Positions 7,829 to 49,651 of a stretch of 64,000 nucleotides of DNA are shown in pieces; the stretch's first letter is position 1; the number at the start of each line of letters is the position of its first letter. Location: NCBI RefSeq assembly GCF_016026235.1, contig NZ_CP065613.1; one strand, written 5' to 3'. Below the pieces are notes generated by a model that saw only the letters and a program-made list of their open reading frames with translations, was not told where the DNA came from and made no database searches. Position numbers and translations under genes: made by a program. The DNA is from Escherichia coli (GTDB lineage: Bacteria; Pseudomonadota; Gammaproteobacteria; Enterobacterales; Enterobacteriaceae).

Positions 7829-8641
7829 TTAGTCCGCCAGAAATAGCGGGCCCATTGGCGGTTTTGGAAGATCATACCGGTCAGGGTAATCCACCGCGAC
7901 CAGATACAGCCCTTCCGCTTTTGCCGTTGCTGCCGCCAGCGTTCTGTCCTTTGCCGCCAGCAACTCTGCTATCCAGCTCTCCGGCTGGTTGTGGGCACCG
8001 ACTTCCATCAGGCTGCCGACAATATTCCTGACCATATGATGTACAAAGGCATTCGCTTTGATATCTACCACCACATAAGGACCGTGACGCGTGACATTAA
8101 TATGCATAACGTTGCGCCACGGGGTTCGGGACTGGCACTGCACCGCACGGAACGAGGTGAAATCATTCTCGCCCAGCAAGCATTGCGCAGCCCGATGCAT
8201 CCGTTCAGCGTCCAGCGGTTCGTAAAAATGGGTTACCCCTTTACTCAGTACCGCCGGGCGCAGCCGATGATTGTAGATGATGTAGCGATAACGGCGAGCC
8301 GTGGCGCTAAATCGGGCATGAAAATCATCAGGTACAGCTTTAACCCAACGCACGGCGATGTCACCAGGTAAATTCGCATTTACGCCCAAGGTCCACGCCG
8401 CGTCTTTGCGCTGCGCGGTTGTTTCGAAATGCACCACCTGCCCGGTACCGTGTACCCCTGCGTCAGTACGCCCGGCGCAGAAGACGGTGATGGGTTCGTT
8501 CGCCACCTGGGAGAGCGCCTTTTCCAGCTTCTCCTGCACACTGCGGACTTCATTCTGCCGTTGCCAGCCGTAATACCTACTGCCGTCGTACTCAATGCCC
8601 AGCGCAATTTTATAAACTGGCGGTTGTTGCTGGTCGGACAT
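7829..8641 (-). CDS. truA: tRNA pseudouridine(38-40) synthase
   Basis: 270-aa [32 protein letters not shown]... with TruA catalytic motif GRTDAGVH. Confidence 0.9.
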
Positions 8642-9654
8642 TAGTACAGATACTCCTGCACCAGTTTCTCGGCGATTTTTACTGCCATCAGCGCGCCGCC
8701 AAAGCGAACGTTATCGGCCACCGACCAGAACTGGACTTGCTCCGGCATACCGTAGTCATTACGCACGCAGCCAACAGAAAGATGCGGCGTACCAGAAGCA
8801 TCACCTACCTGAGTTGGGAATTCGTTCTCTTCAGAGAGCACAATATCTTCGCCTTGAGCAAACGCATCACGCGCTTCTTCTGCCGCCAGCGGACGCAGAG
8901 CTTCAAAGTTGACCATCTGGGCGTGGCCGTAAAATACCGGTGCCTGGACGACGCTTGCCGAAATCATCAGTCCTTCGTCCTGCAGGATTTTGCGTACTTC
9001 GTCAACGATACGACGTTCTTCACGCACGCTACCTTCGCTATCCGGCAGTAACGGCAGCATGTTGAACGCCAGCTGACGCCCGAAGAAATCTTCTTCGTCA
9101 ATCGGAATGCCGTTGAGCAATTTCGCACTCTGCCCCGCTAACGCATCGACCGCTTTTTTGCCCTGGGCGGAGGCTGAAATCAGGCTGGTAACACTGATAC
9201 GCGACAAACCGCCCTGATCGATTAACGGTTTCAGTGCCGCCAGCAGCTGGCTGGTCAGACTGTCTGGTACGGCGATGACATTCCGGTTGCGGTAATCGGT
9301 CAGTACAAACGGGTTTACTTCCGGCACCACCAGCGGTACGTCGGGTTCGAGAGCAAACAGTCCGCTGCTGTCGATCACCAGGCAACCTGAGTTGGTCGCT
9401 TCTTCAACCCAGGCAGCGGTAGCTTCTTTGCCTGCGACAAAAAATGCCAGCTGCGCCTGCGTCCAGTCGAATTCAGCGGCATCCTGCACGGTGATTGTCT
9501 TACCACCAAAGCGCAGTTGTTCGCCTGCGCTTTCGTTACGTGCCAGTGCATAAATTTCCCCAACCGGGAACTGACGTTCAGCCAGCGTTTCAAGCAGGGC
9601 TTCGCCCACAGCGCCAGTTGCGCCCAGGACGGCAATGTTCCAGCCTTCAGACAT
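8641..9654 (-). CDS. usg: USG-1 protein, aspartate-semialdehyde dehydrogenase homolog
   Basis: 337-aa [27 protein letters not shown]... (Rossmann N-terminus); its stop shares position 8641 with the truA start. Confidence 0.85.
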
Positions 9655-9719
9655 GGTGGTTTACTCCAGAAATAGCAAAGCTCCCTGCCAATGTTACAGC
9701 AGAGAGCATGAAGAAGAGA

Positions 9720-10954: not shown

Positions 10955-13128
<2,174 letters not shown>

Positions 13129-17251: not shown

Positions 17252-17800
17252 TCAGTTGAGCGCTTCCGGCCACGGGAACTGTTCCGCCGTAAGTTCCGGC
17301 GTGTGATAATAATTTTGTAGTGCTTTAATGAAGCGTGCCGGACGCTCGGGAATGCCATTTGTTAGATAATCCATCACCTGCGCATGTACTCGCCGTTGAA
17401 ACACCACGCGGTCCGGTTCGAAGTCGCCTTCCAGATTGTCGCAACTGACGTTAAACGGGTATCCCGCCGCCACGCAGAACAACCAGTCGAGCGCCTGCGG
17501 CTTCACTTCAACATCTTCAAACTGGCTTTGCGTTTGGGCATCGCGACCGTCCGGGCAATACCAGTAGCCGAAATCAACCTGCTCGCGGCGCGCTTTCCCG
17601 GCAATACACCAGTGCGAAATCTCATGAATTGCGCTGGCATAAAAGCCATGAGCAAAGACGATTCGGTTATACGGTACTTCCGCATCAGCAGGAAGATAGA
17701 TCGGTTCGTCGTCGCCTTTAATCAGACGGGTATTAAAATCATCGGCAAAGCAGCTATTAAAAATTTCAATCAACTGCTCATAGTGGTGTGTACTGTTCAT
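17252..17800 (-). CDS. epmC: Elongation factor P hydroxylase
   Basis: 182-aa ORF MNSTHHYEQLIEIFNSCFADDFNTRLIKGDDEPIYLP... recognised as YfcM/EpmC. Confidence 0.85.
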   Translation of the reverse strand: MNSTHHYEQLIEIFNSCFADDFNTRLIKGDDEPIYLPADAEVPYNRIVFAHGFYASAIHEISHWCIAGKARREQVDFGYWYCPDGRDAQTQSQFEDVEVKPQALDWLFCVAAGYPFNVSCDNLEGDFEPDRVVFQRRVHAQVMDYLTNGIPERPARFIKALQNYYHTPELTAEQFPWPEALN

Positions 17801-18609
17801 TAGTTCATCCCCAACCAGTGGAGGATCTCCTGTCCGTGGCTATCGTAAAGTAATTTGGCACTCATCACCGCGGAGACGATAACAATCATCGGGCGGATCA
17901 GCTTTTGTCCTTTGCTCAACACCAGTCGTGAACCCATGCGCGCGCCGAGGAACTGCCCCACCAGCATCACAAAGCCCGTCGCCCAAATCACTTTGCCGCC
18001 GAGAATAAACAGCAGTAAACCGCCGATATTTGACGTTGCGTTGAGTAATTTGGCGTGAGCCGTGGCTTTGGCGAGGTTGAATCCGCACAGCGTAACAAAG
18101 GCCAGCGCGTAAAACGATCCGGCTGCCGGACCAAAGAATCCGTCATAAAAACCGACGCAGCCACCGGCAATTAACGCGAAGGGTAAACCGTACATCCGGC
18201 GCTGGCGATCTTCTTCACCCAGCTTTGGCATCAGCAAGAAATAGAGGCCGATACAAATCACCAGAATGGGCAAAATCTGCCGTAAGACATCAGCCTGAAC
18301 GTATTGCACCAGCAGTGCGCCGCTCATTGAGCCGATAAAGGTCATGGCGATATTGAGTTTCTGATCGCTTAAACTAACCACTTTGCGGCGAATAAAGTAG
18401 ATAGTGGCGGAAATAGAGCCGCCGCAAGCTTGCAGTTTATTGGTTGCCAGCGCATTAGCGGGAGACATCCCTGCCGCCATCAATGCCGGAATCGTGAGTA
18501 ACCCACCACCACCGGCAATCGAGTCGATAAATCCCGCCAGCATGGCGACAAAAAAGAGAACTCCCAGCAACAGCGGGGAAACCATAAACAGGCTATTAAA
18601 CGTTTCCAT
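17800..18609 (-). CDS. yfcA: TauE/SafE-family membrane protein YfcA
   Basis: 269-aa polytopic [39 protein letters not shown]... Confidence 0.85.
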   Translation of the reverse strand: METFNSLFMVSPLLLGVLFFVAMLAGFIDSIAGGGGLLTIPALMAAGMSPANALATNKLQACGGSISATIYFIRRKVVSLSDQKLNIAMTFIGSMSGALLVQYVQADVLRQILPILVICIGLYFLLMPKLGEEDRQRRMYGLPFALIAGGCVGFYDGFFGPAAGSFYALAFVTLCGFNLAKATAHAKLLNATSNIGGLLLFILGGKVIWATGFVMLVGQFLGARMGSRLVLSKGQKLIRPMIVIVSAVMSAKLLYDSHGQEILHWLGMN

Positions 18610-19433
18610 TAGATCACGTGCTCATCCAGTAGCGCCTGGCAGGAAGGCGGCAACGGAGGCGGTGTCTTCTTCTCAGGCTTTGTTGTTCCCGGTTTTGGAG
18701 GTTCAAACCAGCTTTGCAGTTCTGCCCCGCAACCATCGCCTGGTGGCGGTAAAGGTTGATCTTCACACTCCAGACTATCGGCAGGGCAACGTAATCGTAC
18801 ATGCATATGCGCGCGATGCTGGAACCAGGGTCGCACTTTGCGCAACCAGTCGCGATCGGTGCCCGCATCAAGGCAAAGTTGTTGTTTAATCGCCGGATTA
18901 ACAAAAATGCGCGTGACGTCTTTGTCCTGGGCGGCGAGTTTGATCAAGCTGAAAATTTCTGGCTTCCACAGCGTGGAGACAACGTGTTTACCGTCGCGGG
19001 AAACTAAGTCCAGTGCTTGCGGGCGCAAGAGCTGCGCGGAGGTCCAGCGAGTTTTCGGCAGTTGCAGAAAGATATCGACATCCAGTCCGGTCTGGTGGCT
19101 GGCATGACCGCCGTTGAAACGCCCACCAGCGGGCATCCCCATATCGCCAATCAGCACCGTACCCATGCCCAGATTGCTCACCTGGCTACTCAGACGCTGG
19201 ATAAACATCACCAGGTCCGGGTGACCGAAATAGCGACGCTGATCGGTACGCATGACCTGATAATGTTCGGACTGTATCGGCAGCGTGTCAGCGCCGACGA
19301 TACAGCCATTAGAAAAACTGCCTATCGATTGTGCGCTACCCGGCACAGGTTGGGTTATTTTTTGCCACGGCGTCGCTGCCAGGCTGACGCTACTGGCAAG
19401 CAGGGCCAGCAGCGCAATCGCGGTTTTGTTCAT
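18609..19433 (-). CDS. mepA: Penicillin-insensitive murein DD-endopeptidase
   Basis: 274-aa ORF with signal peptide [24 protein letters not shown]... recognised as MepA. Confidence 0.9.
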
Positions 19434-22338: not shown

Positions 22339-23187
22339 CTATAGTTCATTCAGTACATACTGGAAACGGCATGTAGAATCAATTGGCGCACGGCTACTGG
22401 TATTCACCTGTACCACAATGTCGTGTAGCTTTTTGTCCGTCACCGGTTGACGTGAGGGGGTGACTGTCACCTTTGCATTATCACAACCATACGAGGTAAA
22501 GGTTAATAAGTCCGAAACAGCACGACAATATGCCCCTCTGGAATCAAAAACACTGCCATCACAGAGTTTGCCGCTTTCCATCAGGTAGGTCGAAAGCGTA
22601 GTCGTGATAGTCGAACCATCGGATTGCAACCGCAACGCTTTATTATGGCTAACGTAATTCTCACTCCATGATATATCAAAAGAAGCAACCGGAATCGTGG
22701 GGCAAGCGGAATCATGTACCGTTGGACTGGTATAAACACCAAATCCTACCTGTTCTGAAACTGAATAAAATGACGCCTGCCATGGGCAACCATAATTATC
22801 AGACTCGACAGTGACATCAAACGTCATATATGCACAGTAAAAATTCTTCGTATTTATACCTGGACAATTCGAGGTATCAGTCCGACCATAGTCGGTCAAT
22901 TTCAACTGTGGTGCAGGCCCGGAACCGGTCCAGGAAATCACCGGGAGTATGTCGCCACGCCGAGCGTCCGAATTATATTGACCATAACTTACCTCTCCTG
23001 GTGTCAGCACCGTGACATAAAAAAACAAATCACCCACAGGCGATATTCTATTCATCCCATAATAAATCTCAGTACTTTTAAAAGTTGAACTCATGAGCTT
23101 ACTACCAGCATAGCTCTTTGATGTTCCCACATTTACTATAAGTAACAGAAGCGCCGCTAAAAAAAATGTCCATTTTTTCATATTCAA
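22339..23187 (-). CDS. yfcO: Fimbria-associated protein YfcO, putative adhesin / tip component
   Basis: ORF with signal peptide MNMKKWTFFLAALLLLIVNVGTSKSYA; the true start may be the third codon; first gene 3' of the yfc operon. Confidence 0.8.
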   Translation of the reverse strand: MNMKKWTFFLAALLLLIVNVGTSKSYAGSKLMSSTFKSTEIYYGMNRISPVGDLFFYVTVLTPGEVSYGQYNSDARRGDILPVISWTGSGPAPQLKLTDYGRTDTSNCPGINTKNFYCAYMTFDVTVESDNYGCPWQASFYSVSEQVGFGVYTSPTVHDSACPTIPVASFDISWSENYVSHNKALRLQSDGSTITTTLSTYLMESGKLCDGSVFDSRGAYCRAVSDLLTFTSYGCDNAKVTVTPSRQPVTDKKLHDIVVQVNTSSRAPIDSTCRFQYVLNEL

Positions 23188-23732
23188 AAATACTCAAAAG
23201 TTACCGTCATCGTGGCGGTGAAATCTCCGGACGTAACATCTCGTCCATTTACGGCCTGTAACCACGTATTAAAATTGACACTGTTATTTCCCTGATTTAA
23301 CGGGAATGTGGCACCTGTGTTGCTGTTAATAGGTACAGCCGCCCCTCCGGCAGTTTCAATGCCAATCCCAACACCCGTTGCAGAAGATGATGAATCAATC
23401 GACAGAAATCCAGGTAAGTCGGTGTCTTCTGTCCCCGTCAAGGTCACCTTGACATTAAACGCCGTGGCACTTTTGCAATCTTTCAACTGAAAGACTAATG
23501 GCACACGCTCTGACTGACCACGTAGCATTAAATCGCTGGCCGCAATTGTGGGGAAATGGATTTCCGCAAGTAAGTTGCCATTGATTACAGGAGTACAGGA
23601 TTTCCCAAACAAATTACCGGTAAAATGCAGATTATCGGCAGCGGAGACTGTCCCACTAAATAACAGCAGACTACAAATAAGCACCAACACACTGTTTTTC
23701 TTCATTGGTAATCCACCTGTAGCGTAGCCCAC
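23184..23732 (-). CDS. yfcP: Fimbrial minor subunit YfcP
   Basis: 182-aa ORF with signal peptide and pilin-like C-terminus ...TATMTVTFEYF. Confidence 0.8.
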   Translation of the reverse strand: MGYATGGLPMKKNSVLVLICSLLLFSGTVSAADNLHFTGNLFGKSCTPVINGNLLAEIHFPTIAASDLMLRGQSERVPLVFQLKDCKSATAFNVKVTLTGTEDTDLPGFLSIDSSSSATGVGIGIETAGGAAVPINSNTGATFPLNQGNNSVNFNTWLQAVNGRDVTSGDFTATMTVTFEYF

Positions 23733-24172
23733 GCCTCAAAGTCCGCCTCTGGTAAATCGACACCACTCTTTTTTACGGGAACGGCTGTTATCACAGGAAG
23801 GGCTGTTTCATTCACCACTAAGGGGGTATTCAGCTTAAAATCGCTTCCGGCTTGTTTAAGATGTATTGCTAATCCATTGATATCGGTGGTTACAGCCGCA
23901 TCATCAAAGTCACTCTGTGTGCCACTCCAGGTCAATGTCATTTCCATTTGAGGGTCACGAACAGTGGTATCACAGGTAATGGCATATGGCACAAACTGCT
24001 CATAATTGCTGCCGTTAATGTCATCAATATTCACGTCCCGAAACGTCAACTCTATATTTTCTCCATTACTAATTGTGCAATTCGGTGGCTGCACTAAATA
24101 ACCATGAAAAGAAATATTCGAGAGCGCCATAGAGCTAATGCCCCACAACATTAAGAGAGAAATCCGTTTCAT
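23702..24172 (-). CDS. yfcQ: Fimbrial minor subunit YfcQ
   Basis: 156-aa ORF MKRISLLMLWGISSMALSNISFHGYLV... ending ...ATLQVDYQ. Confidence 0.8.
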   Translation of the reverse strand: MKRISLLMLWGISSMALSNISFHGYLVQPPNCTISNGENIELTFRDVNIDDINGSNYEQFVPYAITCDTTVRDPQMEMTLTWSGTQSDFDDAAVTTDINGLAIHLKQAGSDFKLNTPLVVNETALPVITAVPVKKSGVDLPEADFEAWATLQVDYQ

Positions 24173-24669
24173 TGATAATCCACCACAATAGTGGCACTGG
24201 CGCTAAATTCCGCCGCCGTTAGAGATACACCGCTCTGCACGACAGGAACCGCTTCCAGTGCCGGTGCGCCCGATGAAAAGTTAAACGGTAACCATGTGCC
24301 AGGCGTTAAATCCAGAATGGAGTGATCGCTGGCTTTTTGAATCCGAATTCCAAAACCGGCAATACCCGTATCGATTACCGTTTCTCCGTTAATCACGGTT
24401 GTAGTTGCCTGCATATTTAAGCGCAGGTCGTCCATTGCCAGATTGTTGCACACAAGCGAGTAGTCAATGGGGCGTTTGTAACTTACCCCATCGATCTTAG
24501 AAATAAATACATTACCGAACTCCACGCTCGCACCAGTTACCGTACAGGGCGGCGGGGTATCAACGAGCACCCGCAAGACCATCGCAACCGATTTGCTACC
24601 CGCCATTACAGGCGTGCTCACAATACTACATAGCAATAACCACACCCAAGCCGAATAAGATCCTTTCAT
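24169..24669 (-). CDS. yfcR: Fimbrial minor subunit YfcR
   Basis: Start set at the internal ATG (24669) giving MKGSYSAWVWLLLCSIVSTPVMAG...; C-terminus ...ATIVVDYQ; the longer ORF-track start overlaps yfcS. Confidence 0.75.
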   Translation of the reverse strand: MKGSYSAWVWLLLCSIVSTPVMAGSKSVAMVLRVLVDTPPPCTVTGASVEFGNVFISKIDGVSYKRPIDYSLVCNNLAMDDLRLNMQATTTVINGETVIDTGIAGFGIRIQKASDHSILDLTPGTWLPFNFSSGAPALEAVPVVQSGVSLTAAEFSASATIVVDYQ

Positions 24670-24679
24670 ATTAGTGCTC

Positions 24680-25438
24680 CTATCCCTGGCCCTGGCTGTT
24701 TTGCTTTTCATCCACCTGGCAGGTGTTTCCCGTACAGGTGAAGAACAGCGGCATCCGCGCGCCATAGTCGTTGACGTAGGTCAGCACCGGGACGCTATCC
24801 ATTTTGACCTTTAACGGTACGGAGGTTTTTGGCGATATCACCAGCGGGGAAAATCCCGCTGCCGGATTACCATTTTTCTGCGCACTGGCGTTACTGATAA
24901 CCACGAAGTACGGCGTCGGGTTATTGACTGTAAACTCCTGGCCGCTGCGGGTTAAGGTCACCTTATGCTGCCACGGATTTTTCATGCTGACGTTTTCCAG
25001 CGCCTTTGGTCGCCAGAACAGCTTGATGCGCGTTTGCAGCGCAATCTGTAACGTGTTGGGTTTGTTCGATTTCGGCGGGATCTCACGCACGTTGAAATAG
25101 AACACGCTCTCGCGGTCGGCAGGCAGCTTGTTGATATCCGGCATGCCCTGTACCTTCACCTGACCGTTCATCATGGAATCGATGCGCTGCACCGGCGGCA
25201 GTACCGTCAGTGGCGAGCTAATCTTGTTACCCTGTTCATCTTCCATCCAGCTTTGTGCCAGATACGGCATTTTCGGGTCGTTATTGCGCAGCGTGACGCT
25301 GATTGATTTATCACTTTCGTTAAAAATCAGGCGTGTACGGTCCGGCGTGACAGAGGCCTGTGCTGACAGGCTGGCGGCAGTTATCAGTAACGCCAGCGTC
25401 GTTGCGGCCGTTCTGGCAGAGCAAAATAGATTCGTCAT
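24680..25438 (-). CDS. yfcS: Periplasmic fimbrial chaperone (PapD-like)
   Basis: 252-aa ORF with signal peptide and chaperone-like N-domain (...PDRTRLIFNESDKSISVTLRNN...). Confidence 0.85.
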   Translation of the reverse strand: MTNLFCSARTAATTLALLITAASLSAQASVTPDRTRLIFNESDKSISVTLRNNDPKMPYLAQSWMEDEQGNKISSPLTVLPPVQRIDSMMNGQVKVQGMPDINKLPADRESVFYFNVREIPPKSNKPNTLQIALQTRIKLFWRPKALENVSMKNPWQHKVTLTRSGQEFTVNNPTPYFVVISNASAQKNGNPAAGFSPLVISPKTSVPLKVKMDSVPVLTYVNDYGARMPLFFTCTGNTCQVDEKQNSQGQG

Positions 25439-25460
25439 GGATCATTCCTTAATCACGTTG

Positions 25461-28112
25461 TTAATTGGCGGATACCGATACCGGCGCTTCCGTTGGCATC
25501 ACCTGCTGGGTCTGCTCCTGGATCACCGGCTTAATTTGATGAGGCATCGAAGGAGATATCGCCCCTGTTTGTTGACATGGTAGTAACAGGCCATTGAACA
25601 GATCGGCTGGCAGTGGGTCCGGCAGATGAATATCACAGTGGGCCACACCGCCCCATGAAACGATCATATGCTCGCCAGGTTTGACACCCGCGAGGTAGAC
25701 GTTGCCGTCATCATCAACCAGACCGACGTTCTGCGCGTTGTCATTTTTCACTTCCGCGCCAAACGGCGGATGACTGCCATCTTGCAGGCGCAATACCGCC
25801 ATCGCTTTTTGCCCGCTGATAACCGAAAACTTACGGTAGCCAATGGCTCCTTCGGTAAGCGTCGCCTGCACCACAGACTGGGTGGCTTCGGCGTTTTCCG
25901 GCAGGTTGTTAAGGTCGATATAGGCCTGATTGCGGTAGTAGTTGTTGACGTCTGCCACCACGGTCTTACCGAACATATTGGTGTAAACCGCCGCGCCATT
26001 TCCTTCCACCGGAACACCAGCCACGCCATCGGCATCAATCAGCAGGCGCGTACCGCCCATATTCTGGGTACGGTGGAGCGCGTCACCCTGCGCGGTCAGC
26101 GTCGCGCCGCCCTGTAAGGAAATACCTGCCGAGGTGTACTGTCCTTCATGGTAGTTGGCGCTGAGGTCCACCTGCGCCAGCGAGCCATCGTGGCTGTAAT
26201 AGCCGTCAACGCTGGAGTGTTTGTCACTGGTCCCCACGTTCAGCTGGTAGTGAGTTGCGTCATCGACACGGCTGAAATACCCCACCTGGCTGCTGTCCGA
26301 ACCGCTGCCGTAGTTGCCGTTATAGCTGATGGTGCTGCTGTCACCCCACGGCATACTGAGCGATATATACACACCTTTATCGGCCTGGTTATCATACTCG
26401 TAGCGGTATCCGGTCATGGAAATGCTCATATTGCGGATACTGCCTAGGTTGAAGTAGTGCGAGAGCATGACGTTGTAGTTGGTCTGTTCGTCGCGATCCC
26501 AGTAGGTATGGCGGGTGTAGTTGAGATAAACAGACACACCGGCATCCCTGAAGTTCTGGTTATAGGTGGCGGTGTACATCTCTTTGTCGTTGCCGGTGCG
26601 CACCATTTCGCTGTCGCTGGCATCGAGATACTCGCTCATGGTCATGAAGTTCTCTTCCGAGAAGCGGTATCCGGCAAAAGTGACGCGGCTGTTCAGTTCA
26701 TCGAAGTCTTTGGAATAGCTCACGCGAAACGAGTTACCGTCCAGTGAACCTTTACCGTAGGCGGTCTCTTTATCCAGGCGGGTATGCGAGTGGGTGATAT
26801 CAAAGGCGACTGCGCCAAAGACAGACAGGTCGCGACCGACGCCAAGCGCCGCCGACTGATAGTGTTCATCTGCCAGCGCCCCGCCGTACAGCGACCAGCC
26901 GTTGGCAATCCCCCATGAAGCTTCGCCGCCGGAGAAGAAACCGCCCTCAACATGATGCCCCCACTCCTGCGGGCGGCCCATCATCAGCTTATAGCGCACC
27001 TGGCCGGGGCGGGTCAGGAACGGCATCGAGGCGGTGTTGATGTCATATTCCTGCACCTGGCCGTTCTGTTCTTCAATGCGGATGTGCAGTGTACCGGAGA
27101 CAGAATCGCCAAGATCCTGGATGCGGAACGGCCCCGCCGGAACCTGCGTTTCGTAAATCACGCGGCCCATCTGGCTGACGGTCACTTTCGCGGTGGTGTG
27201 CGCCACGCCGGAGATATCCGGCGCATAGCCGCGCAGATTCGGCGGCAACATTTGATCGTCGGTGCTGATACTGCCACCCACGTAGTTAAAGCCGTCGAAA
27301 ATATCAGAATTAAGGTAGTCTTCGCCAAGGCCAAGTTTGGCTTTTAGCGACGGTAAGGCCCGCCAGGCGTAGTAGCGGCTCCACTCCCAGTTTTTTTGCG
27401 TGTCATCACCGTTGATAACATCGTCATCATTGCTTTTGCTGTGCTGGTAGTCAGTCTGCCAGTCGGCTCGCAGACGCCATGCGCCGAGGTTAACCCCAAC
27501 CGTTCCGTTGCCGCTGATTTCATTGCTGTCATCCCCGCCATTTTCTTCATGTCGTGTCTGGGCGGTAATATTGTAGTCAGCAATTAAACCAGAAATACCG
27601 TCATCCCAGCGTGAAGGTGGATCCCAGTTGATGTCGGTATATTCAAGGTAAGCCTGGGGTAATGAAATGACTAACGCTGACTGACTCAGGTCAGCTTTAA
27701 TATCAATGCCTTCCAGTTGACCGAGTTTCAGGCATTTGCCGTCGTGGATCCATTGCAGGTTTTTTGCCACATCCTCTTTTAAGCCAAACTGCGCGACCAG
27801 TTCAGGCGTCAGGCAGGCATAGGTTTTACTGGCATCGTTCTCAGAGGCGTACCAGTAAATATCGTATTCTTCCGCCAGCGGCTGTTTATTTAGTTGAACC
27901 TGTAAATTGTATTTACCAGGTTCGACATATCCCTGGCTGGAAAATCGCTTCAGATCGATTTTTGTGTCGCCTTTTAACTCCAGAAAACGGGAATCAAACT
28001 GAATTTCATCTTCAGCCCAGGCATTGACATAACACCCTGACATTGCCAGCGCAATGCAGCAGGGAAGCACCCGCAGTCGGAAAAGAGAATGGTCAGGCAT
28101 ACACGTATCCAT
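25461..28112 (-). CDS. yfcU: Outer membrane fimbrial usher, intact 883-aa reading frame
   Basis: Single uninterrupted 883-aa ORF with usher-like length and composition (long Gly/Tyr/Asn/Ser-rich beta-barrel region); located between chaperone and major subunit. Confidence 0.85.
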   Translation of the reverse strand: MDTCMPDHSLFRLRVLPCCIALAMSGCYVNAWAEDEIQFDSRFLELKGDTKIDLKRFSSQGYVEPGKYNLQVQLNKQPLAEEYDIYWYASENDASKTYACLTPELVAQFGLKEDVAKNLQWIHDGKCLKLGQLEGIDIKADLSQSALVISLPQAYLEYTDINWDPPSRWDDGISGLIADYNITAQTRHEENGGDDSNEISGNGTVGVNLGAWRLRADWQTDYQHSKSNDDDVINGDDTQKNWEWSRYYAWRALPSLKAKLGLGEDYLNSDIFDGFNYVGGSISTDDQMLPPNLRGYAPDISGVAHTTAKVTVSQMGRVIYETQVPAGPFRIQDLGDSVSGTLHIRIEEQNGQVQEYDINTASMPFLTRPGQVRYKLMMGRPQEWGHHVEGGFFSGGEASWGIANGWSLYGGALADEHYQSAALGVGRDLSVFGAVAFDITHSHTRLDKETAYGKGSLDGNSFRVSYSKDFDELNSRVTFAGYRFSEENFMTMSEYLDASDSEMVRTGNDKEMYTATYNQNFRDAGVSVYLNYTRHTYWDRDEQTNYNVMLSHYFNLGSIRNMSISMTGYRYEYDNQADKGVYISLSMPWGDSSTISYNGNYGSGSDSSQVGYFSRVDDATHYQLNVGTSDKHSSVDGYYSHDGSLAQVDLSANYHEGQYTSAGISLQGGATLTAQGDALHRTQNMGGTRLLIDADGVAGVPVEGNGAAVYTNMFGKTVVADVNNYYRNQAYIDLNNLPENAEATQSVVQATLTEGAIGYRKFSVISGQKAMAVLRLQDGSHPPFGAEVKNDNAQNVGLVDDDGNVYLAGVKPGEHMIVSWGGVAHCDIHLPDPLPADLFNGLLLPCQQTGAISPSMPHQIKPVIQEQTQQVMPTEAPVSVSAN

Positions 28113-39887: not shown

Positions 39888-41135
39888 CTATATTGCTGAA
39901 GGTACAGGCGTTTCCATAACTATTTGCTCGCGTTTTTTACTCAGGAAGAAAATGCCAAATAGCAACATCAGGCAGACAATACCCGAAATTGCGAAGAAAA
40001 CTGTCTGGTAGCCTGCGTGGTCAAAGAGTATCCCAGTCGGCGTTGAAAGCAGCACAATCCCAAGCGAACTGGCAATTTGAAAACCAATCAGAAAGATCGT
40101 CGACGACAGGCGCTTATCAAAGTTTGCCACGCTGTATTTGAAGACGGATATGACACAAAGTGGAACCTCAATGGCATGTAACAGCTTCACTAATGAAATA
40201 ATCCAGGGGTTAACAAACAGCGCGCAGGAAAGGATACGCAACGCCATAATCACAACACCGATAAGTAATGCATTTTTTGGCCCTACCCGATTCACAAAGA
40301 AAGGAATAATCGCCATGCACAGCGCTTCGAGTACCACCTGGAATGAGTTGAGATAACCATACAGGCGCGTTCCTACATCGTGTGATTCGAATAAACCTGC
40401 ATAAAAGACAGGAAAAAGTTGTTGATCAAAAATGTTATAGAAAGACCACGTCCCAACAATAAATATGACGAAAACCCAGAAGTTTCGATCCTTGAAAACT
40501 GCGATAAAATCCTCTTTTTTTACCCCTCCCGCATCCGCCGCTACGCACTGGTGATTCTTATCTTTAAAACACATGTTGATCATCATAAATACAGCGCCAA
40601 ATAGCGAGACCAACCAGAAGTTGATATGGGGACTGATACTAAAAAATATGCCGGCAAAGAACGCGCCAATAGCATAGCCAAAAGATCCCCAGGCGCGCGC
40701 TGTTCCATATTCGAAATGAAAATTTCGCGCCATTTTTTCGGTGAAGCTGTCAAGCAAACCGCATCCCGCCAGATACCCCAGGCAAAAAAAGAGCGCCCCC
40801 AGAATTAGACCTACAGAAAAATTGCTTTGCAGTAATGGTTCATAAACGTAAATCATAAACGGTCCGGTCAAGACCTGGATGAAACTCATACACCAGATGA
40901 GCGGTTTCTTCAGACCGAGTTTATCCTGAACGATGCCGTAGAACATCATAAATAGAATGCTGGTAAACTGGTTGACCGAATAAAGTGTACCTAATTCCGT
41001 CCCTGTCAACCCTAGATGTCCTTTCAGCCAAATAGCGTATAACGACCACCACAGCGACCAGGAAATAAAAAAGAGAAATGAGTAACTGGATGCAAAACGA
41101 TAGTACGCATTTCTGAATGGAATATTCAGTGCCAT
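39888..41135 (-). CDS. cscB: Sucrose:H+ symporter (LacY-like MFS permease)
   Basis: 415-aa ORF MALNIPFRNAYYRFASSYSFLFFISWSLWWSLYAIWLKGHLGL... recognised as CscB. Confidence 0.88.
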   Translation of the reverse strand: MALNIPFRNAYYRFASSYSFLFFISWSLWWSLYAIWLKGHLGLTGTELGTLYSVNQFTSILFMMFYGIVQDKLGLKKPLIWCMSFIQVLTGPFMIYVYEPLLQSNFSVGLILGALFFCLGYLAGCGLLDSFTEKMARNFHFEYGTARAWGSFGYAIGAFFAGIFFSISPHINFWLVSLFGAVFMMINMCFKDKNHQCVAADAGGVKKEDFIAVFKDRNFWVFVIFIVGTWSFYNIFDQQLFPVFYAGLFESHDVGTRLYGYLNSFQVVLEALCMAIIPFFVNRVGPKNALLIGVVIMALRILSCALFVNPWIISLVKLLHAIEVPLCVISVFKYSVANFDKRLSSTIFLIGFQIASSLGIVLLSTPTGILFDHAGYQTVFFAISGIVCLMLLFGIFFLSKKREQIVMETPVPSAI

Positions 41136-41206
41136 AATTACCTGCCTGTCGTTAAAAAATTCACGTCCTATTTAGAGATAAGAGCGACTTCGCCGTTTAC
41201 TTCTCA

Positions 41207-42117
41207 CTATTCCAGTTCTTGTCGACATGGCAGCGCTGTCATTGCCCCTTTCGCCGTTACTGCAAGCGCTCCGCAACGTTGAGCGAGATCGATAATTCGT
41301 CGCATTTCTCTCTCATCTGTAGATAATCCCGTAGAGGACAGACCTGTGAGTAACCCGGCAACGAACGCATCTCCCGCCCCCGTGCTATCGACACAATCCA
41401 CAGACATTCCAGCAAAATGGTGAACTTGTCCTCGATAACAGACCACCACCCCTTCTGCACCTTTAGTCACCAACAGCATGGCGATCTCATACTCTTTTGC
41501 CAGGGCGCATATATCCCGATCGTTCTGTGTTTTTCCACTGATAAGTCGCCATTCTTCTTCCGAGAGCTTGACGACATCCGCCAGTTGTAGCGCCTGCCGC
41601 AAACACAAGCGGAGCAAATGCTCGTCTTGCCATAGATCTTCACGAATATTGGGATCGAAGCTGACAAAACCTCCGGCATGCCGGATCGCCGTCATCGCAG
41701 TAAATGCGCTGGTACGCGAAGGCTCGGCAGACAACGCAATTGAACAGAGATGTAACCATTCGCCATGTCGCCAGCAGGGCAAGTCTGTCGTCTCTAAAAA
41801 AAGATCGGCACTGGGGCGAACCATAAACGTAAATGAACGTTCCCCTTGATCGTTCAGATCGACAAGCACCGTGGATGTCCGGTGCCATTCATCTTGCTTC
41901 AGATACGTGATATCGACTCCCTCAGTTAGCAGAGTTCTTTGCATTAACGCACCAAAAGGATCATCACCGACCCGACCTATAAACCCACTTATTCCGCCTA
42001 ATCTGGCGATTCCCACCGCAACGTTAGCTGGCGCGCCGCCAGGACAAGGCAGTAGGCGCCCGTCTGATTCTGGCAAGAGATCTACTACCGCATCCCCTAA
42101 AACCCATACTTTGGCTG
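41207..42117 (-). pseudogene. cscK: Fructokinase cscK body; the ATG and first nucleotide of codon 2 are separated from it by IS4 and lie at 43556..43559
   Basis: Frame reads ...(I)TAKVWVLGDAVVDLLPESDGRLLPCPGGAPANVAVGIARLGG... (pfkB family) up to the IS4 left end; splicing out IS4 and one target-duplication copy restores ATG TCA GCC AAA GTA TGG = MSAKVW. Confidence 0.8.
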
Positions 42118-43543
42118 TAATGCCGATCAGTTAAGGATCAGTTGACCGATCCAGTGGCTGTGTAAGAATCCGGAAACGCTCACTTGTTTCCGGATTTTTT
42201 TATGCACATTGGACAGGCTCTTGATCTGGTATCCCGTTACGATTCTCTGCGTAACCCACTGACTTCTCTGGGGGATTACCTCGACCCCGAACTCATCTCT
42301 CGTTGCCTTGCCGAATCAGGTACTGTAACGCTACGCAAGCGCCGTCTTCCCCTCGAAATGATGGTCTGGTGTATTGTTGGCATGGCGCTTGAGCGTAAAG
42401 AACCTCTTCACCAGATTGTGAATCGCCTGGACATCATGCTGCCGGGCAATCGCCCCTTCGTTGCCCCCAGTGCCGTTATTCAGGCCCGCCAGCGCCTGGG
42501 AAGTGAGGCTGTCCGCCGCGTGTTCACGAAAACAGCGCAGCTCTGGCATAACGCCACGCCGCATCCGCACTGGTGCGGCCTGACCCTGCTGGCCATCGAT
42601 GGTGTGTTCTGGCGCACACCGGATACACCAGAGAACGATGCAGCCTTCCCCCGCCAGACACATGCCGGGAACCCGGCGCTCTACCCGCAGGTCAAAATGG
42701 TCTGCCAGATGGAACTGACCAGCCATCTGCTGACGGCTGCAGCCTTCGGCACGATGAAGAACAGCGAAAATGAGCTTGCTGAGCAACTTATAGAACAAAC
42801 CGGCGATAACACTCTGACGTTAATGGATAAAGGTTATTACTCACTGGGACTGTTAAATGCCTGGAGCCTGGCGGGAGAACACCGCCACTGGATGATACCT
42901 CTCAGAAAGGGAGCGCAATATGAAGAGCTCAGAAAACTGGGTAAAGGCGATCATCTGGTGAAGCTGAAAACCAGCCCGCAGGCACGAAAAAAGTGGCCGG
43001 GACTGGGAAATGAAGTGACAGCCCGCCTGCTGACCGTGACGCGCAAAGGAAAAGTCTGCCATCTGCTGACGTCGATGACGGACGCCATGCGCTTCCCCGG
43101 AGGAGAAATGGCGGATCTGTACAGTCATCGCTGGGAAATCGAACTGGGATACAGGGAGATAAAACAGACGATGCAACTGAGCAGGCTGACGCTGAGAAGT
43201 AAAAAGCCGGAGCTTGTGGAGCAAGAGCTGTGGGGTGTCTTACTGGCTTATAATCTGGTGAGATATCAGATGATTAAAATGGCGGAACATCTGAAAGGTT
43301 ACTGGCCGAATCAACTGAGTTTCTCAGAATCATGCGGAATGGTGATGAGAATGCTGATGACATTGCAGGGCGCTTCACCGGGACGTATACCGGAGCTGAT
43401 GCGCGATCTTGCAAGTATGGGACAACTTGTGAAATTACCGACGAGAAGGGGAAGGGCCTTCCCGAGAGTGGTAAAGGAGAGGCCCTGGAAATACCCCACA
43501 GCCCCGAAAAAGAGCCAGTCAGTTGCTTAACTGACTGGCATTA
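42118..43543 (+). mobile_element. IS4 insertion sequence, complete at 1426 bp, flanked by a 12-bp target duplication
   Basis: Terminal inverted repeats TAATGCCGATCAGTTAAGG (42118..) and CTTAACTGACTGGCATTA (..43543); direct repeat ATACTTTGGCTG at 42106..42117 and 43544..43555; encodes the IS4 transposase. Confidence 0.92.
42202..43530 (+). CDS. insG: IS4 transposase
   Basis: 442-aa [52 protein letters not shown]... recognised as IS4 InsG; DDE transposase. Confidence 0.92.
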
Positions 43544-43773
43544 ATACTTTGGCTGACATTTTTTTCCCTTAAATTCATCTGACTTACGCATAGTGATAAA
43601 CCTCTTTTTCGCAAAATCGTCATGGATTTACTAAAACATGCATATTCGATCACAAAATGTCATAGTTAACGTTAACATTTGTGATATTCATCGCATTATG
43701 AAAGTAAGGGACTTTATTTTTATAAAAGTTAACGTTAACAATTCACCAAATTTGCTTAACCAGGATGATTAAA

Positions 43774-45207
43774 ATGACGCAATCTCGATTGCATGCGGCG
43801 CAAAACGCACTAGCAAAACTTCATGAGCACCGGGGTAACACTTTCTATCCCCATTTTCACCTCGCGCCTCCTGCCGGGTGGATGAACGATCCAAACGGCC
43901 TGATCTGGTTTAACGATCGTTATCACGCGTTTTATCAGCATCACCCGATGAGCGAACACTGGGGGCCAATGCACTGGGGACATGCCACCAGCGACGATAT
44001 GATCCACTGGCAGCATGAGCCTATTGCGCTAGCGCCAGGAGACGATAATGACAAAGATGGGTGTTTTTCAGGTAGTGCTGTCGATGACAATGGTGTCCTC
44101 TCACTTATCTACACCGGACACGTCTGGCTCGATGGTGCAGGTAATGACGATGCAATTCGCGAAGTACAATGTCTGGCTACCAGTCGGGATGGTATTCATT
44201 TCGAGAAACAGGGTGTGATCCTCACTCCACCAGAAGGAATCATGCACTTCCGCGATCCTAAAGTGTGGCGTGAAGCCGACACATGGTGGATGGTAGTCGG
44301 GGCGAAAGACCCAGGCAACACGGGGCAGATCCTGCTTTATCGCGGCAGTTCATTACGTGAATGGACTTTCGATCGCGTACTGGCCCACGCTGATGCGGGT
44401 GAAAGCTATATGTGGGAATGTCCGGACTTTTTCAGCCTTGGCGATCAGCATTATCTGATGTTTTCCCCGCAGGGAATGAATGCCGAGGGATACAGTTACC
44501 GAAATCGCTTTCAAAGTGGCGTAATACCCGGAATGTGGTCGCCAGGACGACTTTTTGCACAATCCGGGCATTTTACTGAACTTGATAACGGGCATGACTT
44601 TTATGCACCACAAAGCTTTGTAGCGAAGGATGGTCGGCGTATTGTTATCGGCTGGATGGATATGTGGGAATCGCCAATGCCCTCAAAACGTGAAGGCTGG
44701 GCAGGCTGCATGACGCTGGCGCGCGAGCTATCAGAGAGCAATGGCAAACTCCTACAACGCCCGGTACACGAAGCTGAGTCGTTACGCCAGCAGCATCAAT
44801 CTATCTCTCCCCGCACAATCAGCAATAAATATGTTTTGCAGGAAAACGCGCAAGCAGTTGAGATTCAGTTGCAGTGGGCGCTGAAGAACAGTGATGCCGA
44901 ACATTACGGATTACAGCTCGGCACTGGAATGCGGCTGTATATTGATAACCAATCTGAGCGACTTGTTTTGTGGCGGTATTACCCACACGAGAATTTAGAC
45001 GGCTACCGTAGTATTCCCCTCCCGCAGCGTGACACGCTCGCCCTAAGGATATTTATCGATACATCATCCGTGGAAGTATTTATTAACGACGGGGAAGCGG
45101 TGATGAGTAGTCGAATCTATCCGCAGCCAGAAGAACGGGAACTGTCGCTTTATGCCTCCCACGGAGTGGCTGTGCTGCAACATGGAGCACTCTGGCAACT
45201 GGGTTAG
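43774..45207 (+). CDS. cscA: Sucrose-6-phosphate hydrolase / invertase (GH32)
   Basis: ATG at 43774 gives MTQSRLHAAQNALAKLHEHRGNTFYPHFHLAPPAGWMNDPNGLIWF... (NDPNG GH32 motif), 477 aa. Confidence 0.9.
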   Translation: MTQSRLHAAQNALAKLHEHRGNTFYPHFHLAPPAGWMNDPNGLIWFNDRYHAFYQHHPMSEHWGPMHWGHATSDDMIHWQHEPIALAPGDDNDKDGCFSGSAVDDNGVLSLIYTGHVWLDGAGNDDAIREVQCLATSRDGIHFEKQGVILTPPEGIMHFRDPKVWREADTWWMVVGAKDPGNTGQILLYRGSSLREWTFDRVLAHADAGESYMWECPDFFSLGDQHYLMFSPQGMNAEGYSYRNRFQSGVIPGMWSPGRLFAQSGHFTELDNGHDFYAPQSFVAKDGRRIVIGWMDMWESPMPSKREGWAGCMTLARELSESNGKLLQRPVHEAESLRQQHQSISPRTISNKYVLQENAQAVEIQLQWALKNSDAEHYGLQLGTGMRLYIDNQSERLVLWRYYPHENLDGYRSIPLPQRDTLALRIFIDTSSVEVFINDGEAVMSSRIYPQPEERELSLYASHGVAVLQHGALWQLG

Positions 45208-45214
45208 CATAATA

Positions 45215-46210
45215 TCAGGTGGAACAACGGATCAACAGCGGGCAAGGGATCCGCGTCACACTTCCCCCTTCACGACCTTCAATAATATGCAATGCAGCTT
45301 CCCGCCCGATAATGTCATGTGGAAGCTGAATTGTGGTCAGCGGCGGTAAAAACAGATGCCCGACACCAACCAGATTATCAAAGCCCATTACGGCGACATC
45401 CTGCGGGATACGTACCCCCTTCGCCAGGAGAACCTGATAAGCCACAAAGGCTGCGCGATCGTTACCACATATCAGAACATCAAAATCTGGTTTGCCCGAT
45501 TTGAAGTGGTCATTGAGTAAACTTGCGAGATCGGTGTAGTGATCATCACCTGTTGCCATGTGAAATTGTTTCACCTCAGCCAGATCTCGTCCAGCATCAC
45601 GCCAGGCCTGCTCAAATCCCTGCCGACGATACCCCGTTGCCAACGCACTTTCCGGTAGCCAGAAGCATAACGGTTGACGATAGCCCGCCGCGAGCAAATG
45701 CTGTGTTGATTCATATTGTGCAGTGTAATCATCAGGGATATAACTGGGTAACGCTGGGTCATCCGCCACACAGTTAGCCAATACAATATTTTCACCATAC
45801 AGAGACTCAGGTAGCGTGATATGTCGCAGCCCCATTGTAGTATAGATAATGCCATCCGGACGGTGGGCAAGCAGCTGACGTGCCGCGCGGGCAGCGTCAT
45901 CTTCAGAAAAAATATTGATTAAAAAACTATTCCAGCCGAACTCGCTGGCGGTTTGCTCAATGGCAAGCAGAATATCAACAGAGAAAGGAGTGGTAGCCGT
46001 GTCCTGCGCCAGCACGGCGAGAGTCGACGGCTTACGTCCTTGAGCGCGCATCTTACGGGCGGAAAGATCAGGAACATAATTCAGGGTCTGGATTGCCTGC
46101 AATACGCGGTCACGCGTTGCAGGACGCACAGATTCTGCATTATGCATCACCCGGGAGACTGTCATCATCGACACTCCCGCCAGGCGTGCGACATCCTTTA
46201 ATGAAGCCAT
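45215..46210 (-). CDS. cscR: LacI-family sucrose operon repressor
   Basis: Start set at the ATG (46210) giving MASLKDVARLAGVSMMTVSRVMHNAESVRPATRDRVLQAIQTLNYVPD... (HTH LacI), 331 aa; the ORF track starts 62 codons upstream. Confidence 0.88.
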   Translation of the reverse strand: MASLKDVARLAGVSMMTVSRVMHNAESVRPATRDRVLQAIQTLNYVPDLSARKMRAQGRKPSTLAVLAQDTATTPFSVDILLAIEQTASEFGWNSFLINIFSEDDAARAARQLLAHRPDGIIYTTMGLRHITLPESLYGENIVLANCVADDPALPSYIPDDYTAQYESTQHLLAAGYRQPLCFWLPESALATGYRRQGFEQAWRDAGRDLAEVKQFHMATGDDHYTDLASLLNDHFKSGKPDFDVLICGNDRAAFVAYQVLLAKGVRIPQDVAVMGFDNLVGVGHLFLPPLTTIQLPHDIIGREAALHIIEGREGGSVTRIPCPLLIRCST

Positions 46211-46676: not shown

Positions 46677-48005
46677 ATGGAAAACGCTAAAATGAACTCG
46701 CTCATCGCCCAGTATCCGTTGGTAAAGGATCTGGTTGCTCTTAAAGAAACCACCTGGTTTAATCCTGGCACGACCTCATTGGCTGAAGGTTTACCTTATG
46801 TTGGCCTGACCGAACAGGATGTTCAGGACGCCCATGCGCGCTTATCCCGTTTTGCACCCTATCTGGCAAAAGCATTTCCTGAAACTGCTGCCACTGGGGG
46901 GATTATTGAATCAGAACTGGTTGCCATTCCGGCTATACAAAAACGGCTGGAAAAGGAATATCAACAACCGATCAGCGGGCAACTGTTACTGAAAAAAGAT
47001 AGCCATTTGCCCATTTCCGGCTCCATAAAAGCACGCGGCGGGATTTATGAAGTCCTGGCACACGCAGAAAAACTGGCTCTGGAAGCGGGGTTGCTGACGC
47101 TTGATGATGACTACAGCAAACTGCTGTCTCCGGAGTTTAAACAGTTCTTTAGCCAATACAGCATTGCTGTGGGCTCAACCGGAAATCTGGGGTTATCAAT
47201 CGGCATTATGAGCGCCCGCATTGGCTTTAAGGTGACAGTGCATATGTCTGCTGATGCCCGGGCATGGAAAAAAGCGAAACTGCGCAGCCATGGCGTTACG
47301 GTCGTGGAATATGAGCAAGATTATGGTGTTGCCGTCGAGGAAGGACGTAAAGCAGCGCACTCTGACCCGAACTGTTTCTTTATTGATGACGAAAATTCCC
47401 GCACGTTGTTCCTTGGGTATTCCGTCGCTGGCCAGCGTCTTAAAGCGCAATTTGCCCAGCAAGGCCGTATCGTCGATGCTGATAACCCTCTGTTTGTCTA
47501 TCTGCCGTGTGGTGTTGGCGGTGGTCCTGGTGGCGTCGCATTCGGGCTTAAACTGGCGTTTGGCGATCATGTTCACTGCTTTTTTGCCGAACCAACGCAC
47601 TCCCCTTGTATGTTGTTAGGCGTCCATACAGGATTACACGATCAGATTTCTGTTCAGGATATTGGTATCGACAACCTTACCGCAGCGGATGGCCTTGCAG
47701 TTGGTCGCGCATCAGGCTTTGTCGGGCGGGCAATGGAGCGTCTGCTGGATGGCTTCTATACCCTTAGCGATCAAACCATGTATGACATGCTTGGCTGGCT
47801 GGCGCAGGAAGAAGGTATTCGTCTTGAACCTTCGGCACTGGCGGGTATGACCGGACCTCAGCGCGTGTGTGCATCAGTAAGTTACCAACAGATGCACGGT
47901 TTCAGCGCAGAACAACTGCGTAATACCACTCATCTGGTGTGGGCGACGGGAGGTGGAATGGTGCCGGAAGAAGAGATGAATCAATATCTGGCAAAAGGCC
48001 GTTAA
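46677..48005 (+). CDS. dsdA: D-serine dehydratase (PLP-dependent)
   Basis: 442-aa [34 protein letters not shown]... recognised as DsdA. Confidence 0.93.
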
Positions 48006-48112
48006 TAACGTTTCAACGCAGCATCGCCATCCTTTCCCTGGGTGAGCGATGCTGCCGATGGCGCAGACTTAAGATCCCCAGTCTTACCCGCTATAACCCC
48101 CTGCTTTTACCA

Positions 48113-49651
48113 TCACCCAACGCCTTTCGCTGTAAACGGCGGTTTCGCAAACCACACCAAAACCGTAAGTAAGATAAAAGCAATAGCCGCCATACGGAAA
48201 ATCTCATTTGCAGAAATAGAAAGTGACTGCTGGGTTATTTCATTATTAATTTCATTAAGAACTCCTGAAAGCGAACCATAGTATTTATCCATAATTTGTG
48301 ACGATGAATTAAACACGGGGTTAAATTGATCGATGGTTGCTGTCAACTGACTATGGTGTAACGATTCGCGTCGTCCCCACAGCGTCATTGTCAACGACGT
48401 ACCAACGGATCCTGACAAGGTACGAAAAAAATTACTCATACTCGAGGCATTGGCAAATTTATTATCTGGCAAGCCTGAAAACGAAATCGTTGTTAAGGGT
48501 AAAAAGAAACAGGCAACGGCGAATCCCTGAAAAAACTGCGGCAAAATGATACCTGTAAAATCAATCGTTGGCATAAATGTCACAGAACGCCAGTAATAGC
48601 AAACCGCATACATCAAAAAACTAAATGTCACCAACACCCGCATGTCAATTTTGTTGCCATAACGTCCTATCAAAGGCGAAATCAATAGTGGCATGATGCC
48701 GATGGGCGCATAAGCAAGTCCGGCCCATATCGCATTATACCCCATCGTTTCCTGGAGTAACTGCGGCATAAGGACTATCGCTCCAGAGTAAAATAAATAC
48801 GCGCAGGTGATACTCACAATACCAATGGTGAAATTACGGGACTTAAACAAACTGAGGTCAAGAATCGGGTTCTCTGAGGTCGACTCCCAAATGACTAAAG
48901 AGATCAGAGAAATAACTGATACTACTGTTAATATTATTATTGTACTCGAGTTGAACCAATCCAGATCGCGCCCTTTATCAAGCATAATTTGCAAGCCACC
49001 AACACCGAGCACTAACAGGGTCAGTCCTGGTAGATTCATTTTGACCGGTGAAGTCTCAGTTTCTCTTCCTTTAAGTAAGGTTAAGCATAATGTCAGGACG
49101 ATAATCCCCATAGGGACATTGATTAAAAATATCCAACCCCAGCTAAAGTTATCGCAAATATATCCGCCTAATATCGGCCCACATATCGGAGCGATAATCA
49201 CGGTCATTGACCATAATGCCAGAGCAAATGTTCTTTTTTCTGGTGGATAATTCCTTAATAATAAACTCTGTGACAGTGGAATTAACGGCCCTGCCATTAA
49301 CCCCTGAACGACTCTAAAAAATATCAGCACATCAAGATTGGTCGATAAACTACACATTAATGAAGACAGCGAAAAAAAAGTGACTGAAAGTAAAAATAAC
49401 CTTAATTCGCCTATTCTTTGTGCCAGCCTGCCGGTAACAGGGATCGCAATGGCATTTGCTACGCCAAACGAGGTGATAACCCAGGTGCCTTCGTCTGTTG
49501 ATGCTCCCAGAAAGCCAGATATTGTCGGTATTGCGACGTTAGAAATAGTGGAATCCAACATTTGCATAAACGTCGCTAATGACAATGCAATAGTGACGCA
49601 CCATAACGTCCCACCGGTTAATGGTGCCGGAGTTGATTTAGTGATTGCCAT
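48113..49651 (-). CDS. emrY: MFS multidrug efflux pump (EmrB paralog)
   Basis: 512-aa 14-TMS-type ORF MAITKSTPAPLTGGTLWCVTIALSLATFMQMLDSTISNVAIP... Confidence 0.9.
   Translation of the reverse strand: MAITKSTPAPLTGGTLWCVTIALSLATFMQMLDSTISNVAIPTISGFLGASTDEGTWVITSFGVANAIAIPVTGRLAQRIGELRLFLLSVTFFSLSSLMCSLSTNLDVLIFFRVVQGLMAGPLIPLSQSLLLRNYPPEKRTFALALWSMTVIIAPICGPILGGYICDNFSWGWIFLINVPMGIIVLTLCLTLLKGRETETSPVKMNLPGLTLLVLGVGGLQIMLDKGRDLDWFNSSTIIILTVVSVISLISLVIWESTSENPILDLSLFKSRNFTIGIVSITCAYLFYSGAIVLMPQLLQETMGYNAIWAGLAYAPIGIMPLLISPLIGRYGNKIDMRVLVTFSFLMYAVCYYWRSVTFMPTIDFTGIILPQFFQGFAVACFFLPLTTISFSGLPDNKFANASSMSNFFRTLSGSVGTSLTMTLWGRRESLHHSQLTATIDQFNPVFNSSSQIMDKYYGSLSGVLNEINNEITQQSLSISANEIFRMAAIAFILLTVLVWFAKPPFTAKGVG

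Follow-up and report, generated by a model that had tools for sequence, protein, structure and literature searches.

We analysed the gene junctions of a 64,000-nucleotide (nt) stretch of Escherichia coli DNA (NCBI RefSeq assembly GCF_016026235.1, contig NZ_CP065613.1); this whole stretch is called the window. At five junctions, usg>truA, mepA>yfcA, yfcA>epmC, fadI>fadJ and emrK>emrY (written in the order of transcription), the upstream gene's stop codon and the downstream gene's start codon share one base. These overlaps are already known, and they are real, non-random, conserved and ordinary. We consider it probable that they are ordinary -1 stop/start overlaps with termination-reinitiation as the most likely mechanism of translational coupling. 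The junctions, their start codons, frequency and conservation were observed directly; coupling itself and its mechanism are what we infer.

Five one-base stop/start overlaps

Gene models were transferred to the window from RefSeq/PGAP and K-12 and checked open reading frame (ORF) by ORF. All 50 had a start codon at the front, a stop codon at the end and no internal stop. A megablast search against 5,426 complete E. coli genomes placed the window on the E. coli chromosome, from ubiX to lpxP. On this map, which was checked for each ORF, the five pairs are same-strand neighbours with no gene between them. They lie in four operons (pdxB-usg-truA-dedA, aroC-mepA-yfcA-epmC-yfcL, fadIJ and emrKY), and their junctions are as follows:

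8639..8643, minus strand: usg stop / truA start, TAATG, -1 nt overlap (from the sequence; RefSeq and K-12 have the same boundary)
17798..17802, minus strand: yfcA stop / epmC start, TAATG, -1 (from the sequence and a 79-species comparison)
18607..18611, minus strand: mepA stop / yfcA start, TAATG, -1, without a usable Shine-Dalgarno motif upstream
32219..32223, minus strand: fadI stop / fadJ start, TAATG, -1 (from the sequence and three other genera)
49649..49653, minus strand: emrK stop / emrY start, TAATG, -1, AU-rich, unstructured and without a Shine-Dalgarno motif

At all five, the upstream TAA ends in the very A with which the downstream ATG begins. An initial annotation of this DNA had listed shared boundary coordinates at usg/truA, epmC/yfcA, yfcA/mepA, fadI/fadJ and emrK/emrY, and every one of them was right. 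Inspection of the junction motifs, which it had proposed as a check, gave the five TAATG together with ATGA at yfcR>yfcQ and yfcQ>yfcP. Two of its pairs were named in map order, not in transcription order, and the minus strand went unmentioned.

The same shared boundaries appear at the five junctions in PGAP annotations for two other strains as well as in the curated record of K-12, and the K-12 junction sequences are identical to those of the window. According to a mechanically compiled ORF list, no ATG, GTG or TTG stands between the preceding in-frame stop and the shared ATG in any of the five downstream ORFs; alternative starts are therefore only possible downstream.

The window holds 33 co-directional adjacent pairs, 25 of which are short-gap pairs. 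Among the 33, a spacing of -1 occurred five times, -4 twice and -11 once. Exactly -1 was thus seen in 5 of the 25 short-gap pairs versus 0.2 expected under an even-gap null from -20 to +100 (P ~2e-6). A TG followed a TAA or TGA stop in 8 of 44 cases versus 3.1 expected from composition (P = 0.011). Gaps of -8 to +6 were found in 10 of the 33 pairs (30%) versus 707 of 2,987 pairs genome-wide in E. coli (24%; Huber et al. 2023), a difference with P = 0.24. The tight junctions of the window are non-random against the even-gap null, yet they are not unusual for E. coli.

The initial annotation had called this ordinary operon architecture, a description that we can only endorse: -1 is the second most common co-directional spacing in E. 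coli and across 1,695 prokaryotic species, and Huber et al. 2023 list all five pairs at -1, and folC>dedD at -11, in their supplementary table for K-12. The five share their motif, spacing and position inside operons with the catalogued -1 overlaps of the TAATG/TGATG type (Huber et al. 2019/2023; Brown & Wade 2025). In the window, -1 junctions outnumber -4 junctions by five to two (three with evgL, see below), whereas -4 is commoner across the E. coli genome. This skew is not meaningful because the numbers are small.

Conservation of the junctions and their start codons

We compared the yfcA junctions across species, taking one genome per species, at 80 Enterobacteriaceae loci with 83-100% YfcA protein identity. 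Kosakonia, Buttiauxella and a few others, in which the tblastn alignment stopped short of residue 1, were scored by eye with a nearest-ATG rule. The mepA>yfcA junction read TRATG in 73 of the 80 species, the stop codon being TAA 53 times and TGA 20 times. Five forms of the final mepA codon occurred, and its third base varied (1.4 bits); the T of the stop and the ATG were invariant. The junction departed from TRATG in Buttiauxella and its relatives, at +11/+12, and at two insertion-bearing loci. At yfcA>epmC, the spacing was -1 in 57 of 79 species and -4 in another 14, which comprise all Kosakonia along with some others, and in the remaining 8 it ranged from +1 to +16, depending on the ATG chosen. 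A junction that alternates between -1 and -4 yet stays tight shows the behaviour predicted from selection acting on spacing and not on sequence.

For the other three junctions, we fetched the contigs of database protein homologues. At usg>truA, the shared coordinate (TAATG or TGATG) was found in Citrobacter arsenatis, Cronobacter dublinensis and Pantoea ananatis, and the CAGGAG upstream of truA was kept in Citrobacter, Cronobacter, Pantoea and Proteus. The public truA start of Proteus mirabilis is an ATT located 54 nt downstream of an in-frame ATG, which gives an apparent gap of +53 (locus 1945-2003). That in-frame ATG sits in a TGATG at the usg stop, with CAGGAG upstream; calling the ATT as the start is probably an error that masks a conserved -1 overlap.

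The shared coordinate of fadI>fadJ recurred in Salmonella enterica, Citrobacter farmeri and Enterobacter cloacae, all reading ...CTGGAGGCnGAATAATG, and the GGAGG upstream of fadJ was conserved. At emrK>emrY, we found TGATG in a Klebsiella-like ortholog next to evgAS, the only genus sampled with -1; emrKY-like pairs were spaced at +3 in Serratia fonticola and at +8 in Hafnia alvei. Within E. coli, 5,387 of the 5,426 genomes carried the 81-nt emrK/emrY junction, with 95-100% identity.

These comparisons bear on the idea that the overlaps are annotation artefacts, with true starts further downstream (for example at yfcA Met9 or fadJ Met3) and genes that do not overlap at all. Such starts are available in two of the genes: codon 9 of yfcA is an in-frame ATG, which is conserved, and codon 3 of fadJ is another. 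In addition, the 31-nt overlap given for yfcP in the initial annotation really was an artefact of start choice (see below). However, the shared ATG of mepA>yfcA is kept within TRATG in 73 of the 80 species compared. Moreover, the codon-position entropy of yfcA and epmC displayed a coding pattern from codon 2 onward (positions 1-2 conserved, position 3 free), and yfcA codons 2, 4 and 8 (D/E, F, F) had invariant positions 1-2 and a variable position 3. This pattern speaks for the shared ATG, rather than yfcA Met9, as the point where translation begins. Salmonella FadJ begins with MTTTSAF; it lacks Met3 and keeps the shared ATG, showing that Met3 of the E. coli protein is no conserved alternative start. 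The truA, epmC and emrY genes have no alternative start before their conserved cores, and PGAP and K-12 curation concur on the starts. We thus regard the artefact explanation as extremely improbable.

Published start mapping yielded no N-terminal protein data for these starts: the supplements of the TRAINSPOTTER N-terminomics study list no entries for the genes of the four poorly expressed pairs, and INRI-seq gave only a weak out-of-frame CTG site near fadJ. The initial annotation had argued that the shared codons support the chosen starts. This view is borne out by the concordance of annotations, the 5'-most position of the starts, the retention of TRATG while the stop codon turns over and the onset of the coding pattern at codon 2, a body of evidence (annotation, cross-species comparison and codon variation) that lies outside what that annotation had. 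Judged from these sequence comparisons, the shared ATG appears to be the genuine start codon in all five downstream genes.

Proposed translational coupling at the junctions

Two models of translational coupling have been published: reinitiation after termination, and unfolding of an inhibitory RNA structure by the upstream ribosome. In the reinitiation model, which we favour here, a ribosome that terminates at the UAA would already sit on the next AUG, which is out of frame by one base. Once the peptide is released, either the 30S subunit or the complete 70S ribosome would re-engage this AUG instead of leaving the mRNA, and part of the translation of the downstream gene would be fed by translation of the upstream gene. 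This hand-over would not be one to one, and the dependence on it probably differs by pair. Coupling is reported to be most efficient at spacings of -4 to +3, and all five junctions, at -1, lie inside the span regarded as efficient (about -8/-4 to +3/+6). Overlapping gene pairs native to E. coli have been studied with mRNA-normalised reporters (Huber 2019): four of five were tightly coupled, all of the -4 type; bioBF, one of the five, initiates de novo. Removal of the Shine-Dalgarno motif lowered reinitiation in four of the five tested pairs.

Coupling supposes a common mRNA. In K-12, usg and truA have equal mRNA levels (196 versus 198; Burkhardt 2017), which is consistent with one transcript, and the two genes are co-transcribed in Salmonella as determined by reverse transcription PCR. 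The fadIJ genes are described as an operon. Spacing and annotation suggest that mepA-yfcA-epmC and emrKY are each carried on one mRNA as well.

We searched for Shine-Dalgarno motifs by scanning anti-Shine-Dalgarno duplexes upstream of the starts. Three of the downstream genes have a motif inside the upstream coding sequence:

32229..32233, minus strand: GGAGG Shine-Dalgarno motif inside fadI, 7 nt before the fadJ ATG (-9.3 kcal/mol)
8653..8657, minus strand: AGGAG Shine-Dalgarno-like motif inside usg, 11 nt before the truA ATG (-6.9 kcal/mol)
17808..17812, minus strand: GGGGA Shine-Dalgarno-like motif inside yfcA, 7 nt before the epmC ATG (-5.5 kcal/mol)

The fadJ motif is the strongest of the five junctions, and the truA motif, at its long spacing, is marginal as a Shine-Dalgarno motif at functional distance. 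For yfcA and emrY, the duplex scan found no usable motif within 22 nt (best duplex ~-3 kcal/mol). These two genes would rely on hand-over most, and fadJ, epmC and truA would also be able to initiate de novo via the motif inside the upstream gene. The tested E. coli pairs resemble the latter three in having a short overlap and a Shine-Dalgarno motif in the upstream ORF. They differ in being ATGA (-4) junctions, and yfcA and emrY lack the motif that mattered in most of them.

Could coupling operate through RNA unfolding instead? According to this explanation, the upstream ribosome melts a structure that hides the start, whereupon another 30S subunit binds there de novo, as established for E. coli atpHA and rplJL. 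The minimum-energy folds do pair part of the truA AGGAG, and a 6-bp hairpin (GGAAAC...GUUUCC, ~18574-18606, minus strand) forms just after the yfcA AUG. However, the 103-nt windows around all five junctions folded no better than 200 dinucleotide shuffles (z -0.27 to +0.56), giving no sign of a stable sequestering structure. The emrK/emrY junction is nearly unstructured (-9.8 kcal/mol), and the yfcA hairpin is probably not meaningful because the stretch containing it differs from species to species. The absence of folding beyond that of the shuffles favours reinitiation, and we consider unfolding improbable.

A second alternative is that there is no functional coupling: the overlaps would be a neutral by-product of packing, with downstream genes initiated independently by free 30S subunits, and TRATG or ATGA would arise easily beside a start codon. 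Several observations weigh against reinitiation or speak for this alternative. The published coupling tests used -4 and not -1 pairs, and we found no published coupling experiment for any of the five pairs. The relative translation efficiency (TE) of overlapping E. coli pairs is as widely spread as that of non-overlapping pairs (Burkhardt 2017). In the table of that study, which includes only usg/truA of the five pairs, ribosome density is 207 for usg versus 77 for truA and TE is 1.05 versus 0.39; truA is thus translated 2.7-fold less than usg at equal mRNA. Protein copies per cell follow suit, with ~380 for Usg and ~40 for TruA (Zhao 2019), a ~9.5-fold difference. Any hand-over from usg to truA must therefore be partial, and the numbers fit weak independent initiation of truA equally well. 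The motifs before fadJ, epmC and truA and the behaviour of bioBF also suit independent initiation. Finally, pairs without overlap still work, such as emrA>emrB (+16) and the Serratia and Hafnia emrKY-like pairs described above.

On the other side, neutral packing does not readily account for a tight junction that is kept across 80 species despite TAA/TGA switching and interconversion of -1 and -4, nor for yfcA and emrY, which would have to initiate with duplexes of ~-3 kcal/mol. It also sits uneasily with the coupling of four of the five tested overlapping pairs. On balance, we find the absence of coupling unlikely, though less so than RNA unfolding. The statement of the initial annotation that the overlaps imply translational coupling was nevertheless too strong, given the -4 type of the coupled pairs, the equal TE spread and the drop at truA: the overlaps are compatible with, and statistically predictive of, coupling.

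The functions of the paired genes point in both directions. FadI and FadJ form the second trifunctional beta-oxidation complex, and EmrK and EmrY supply the adaptor and the transporter of a single efflux pump, which the Huber 2023 table marks as a complex. Complex subunits are 4.5-fold enriched among short-distance E. coli pairs, a class that FadIJ and EmrKY fit. The table marks fadI/fadJ as non-complex, though elsewhere the two proteins are described as forming a trifunctional-enzyme complex, which makes the enrichment of complexes published for overlapping pairs a conservative figure. Usg/TruA, MepA/YfcA and YfcA/EpmC are marked 'not' (no known association) in this table, as are 70% of short-distance E. 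coli pairs. The products of these three of the five pairs are unrelated in function, and stoichiometric coupling would thus bring no obvious benefit there, a further point in favour of independent initiation.

Two known systems help to place the five pairs. The paralogous efflux pair emrA-emrB of E. coli has the same adaptor-then-transporter order and the same protein families (EmrB is ~62% identical to EmrY). It has a +16 nt spacer with a GAGG motif, whereas emrK>emrY has the -1 overlap.

The trpB-trpA junction is an overlapping stop/start within one polycistronic mRNA. It is cited in the literature as translationally coupled, and coupling has been shown genetically there, unlike at the five pairs studied here.

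Within the reinitiation model, mepA>yfcA>epmC could be a double relay, that is, an obligate chain of ribosome hand-over. Two one-base overlaps follow each other, both are kept in most Enterobacteriaceae, and the middle gene is the one that lacks a Shine-Dalgarno motif. We regard an obligate chain as quite improbable, more so than RNA unfolding. If it were true, translation of a TauE-family inner-membrane protein and then of the EF-P hydroxylase EpmC would be tied to translation of a periplasmic murein endopeptidase. Such a tie would point to a functional or localisation link that has gone unrecognised, for example translation of epmC from a membrane-tethered mRNA.

Other overlaps, the wider window and significance

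Four further overlaps were found in the window:

23702..23705, minus strand: yfcQ stop / yfcP start, ATGA, -4 (from sequence and annotation)
24169..24172, minus strand: yfcR stop / yfcQ start, ATGA, -4 (from sequence and annotation)
4679..4689, minus strand: folC / dedD overlap of 11 nt; dedD has a GTG start and a GAGGAG Shine-Dalgarno motif
51204..51233, plus strand: evgL, a 9-codon upstream ORF (MLHCKGNNL) whose TGA overlaps the evgA ATG as ATGA, -4

The initial annotation had given overlaps of 4-31 nt for yfcP/yfcQ/yfcR. The lower figure holds at both junctions. The upper one arises only with the longest-ORF start of yfcP, GTG 23732, and is an artefact of that choice: PGAP and K-12 both start yfcP at ATG 23705, which has a GGTGGA Shine-Dalgarno motif 6 nt upstream and opens straight into a signal peptide, MKKNSVLVLICS... 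The other two overlaps were missing from its list. The folC>dedD overlap is also -11 in K-12. The evgL ORF (K-12 name) is preceded by GGGAGAAGGGAG and its ATGA lies at 51230-51233; it may act as a leader peptide or coupling element for the acid-response regulator evgA.

The yfc fimbrial operon around yfcP (22339-28745, minus strand) is ~83.5% identical to that of K-12, and its flanks are 97-98% identical. Its usher gene yfcU is intact in the window (883 aa) and a pseudogene in K-12, and the yfcS>yfcR junction is -1 in K-12 and +10 in the window. The yfc operon is absent between sixA and smrB in Salmonella, Citrobacter farmeri and Enterobacter cloacae. Elsewhere, flk (plus strand) and yfcJ (minus strand) run towards each other, with an overlap of 4 nt between their stop codons (GTTAAC, 11947-11950). 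Between dedD and cvpA stand three tandem REP-type naRNA4 copies (Rfam RF02564, 73-80 bits; 3712-3964, minus strand); this gap is 531 nt in the window versus 258 nt in K-12.

The gene order of the window runs from ubiX through truA, fabB, aroC, the yfc fimbrial operon, fadIJ, fadL and argW to the csc sucrose locus, dsdA, emrKY, evgAS, the oxalate genes and lpxP. The csc sucrose-utilisation locus (cscB, cscK, cscA, cscR; 39888-46210) lies beside tRNA-Arg (argW), where it takes the place of dsdC and the greater part of dsdX. Between cscK and cscA lies an IS4 copy (transposase 42202-43530). Its terminal repeat abuts cscK, and the annotated cscK 'start' is therefore an ATT (42121); the cscK start codon has probably been lost. 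The same csc/IS4 arrangement occurs in several RefSeq strains. The yfdF gene (36075-37133, plus strand) has a premature stop at codon 94 (36354-36356) and is otherwise 99.3% identical to an intact 352-codon allele, suggesting that it is probably a pseudogene in this strain.

Identity between K-12 and the window is 97.4-98.4%. Among the 5,426 complete RefSeq E. coli genomes, even the best match reached only 98.3-98.9% over stretches of 12-24 kb. By this measure, the lineage of the strain is therefore not closely represented in that collection.

Taken together, these results are of little importance beyond annotation quality: the TRATG and ATGA junctions confirm the starts of truA, yfcA, epmC, fadJ, emrY, yfcP and yfcQ. 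The reinitiation model predicts that dependence on upstream translation would be highest for yfcA and emrY, which lack a Shine-Dalgarno motif, lower for truA and lowest for epmC and fadJ. In the design of knock-outs or engineered strains, early stops or insertions in usg, mepA, yfcA, fadI or emrK may cut the translation of the next gene in addition to its transcription.

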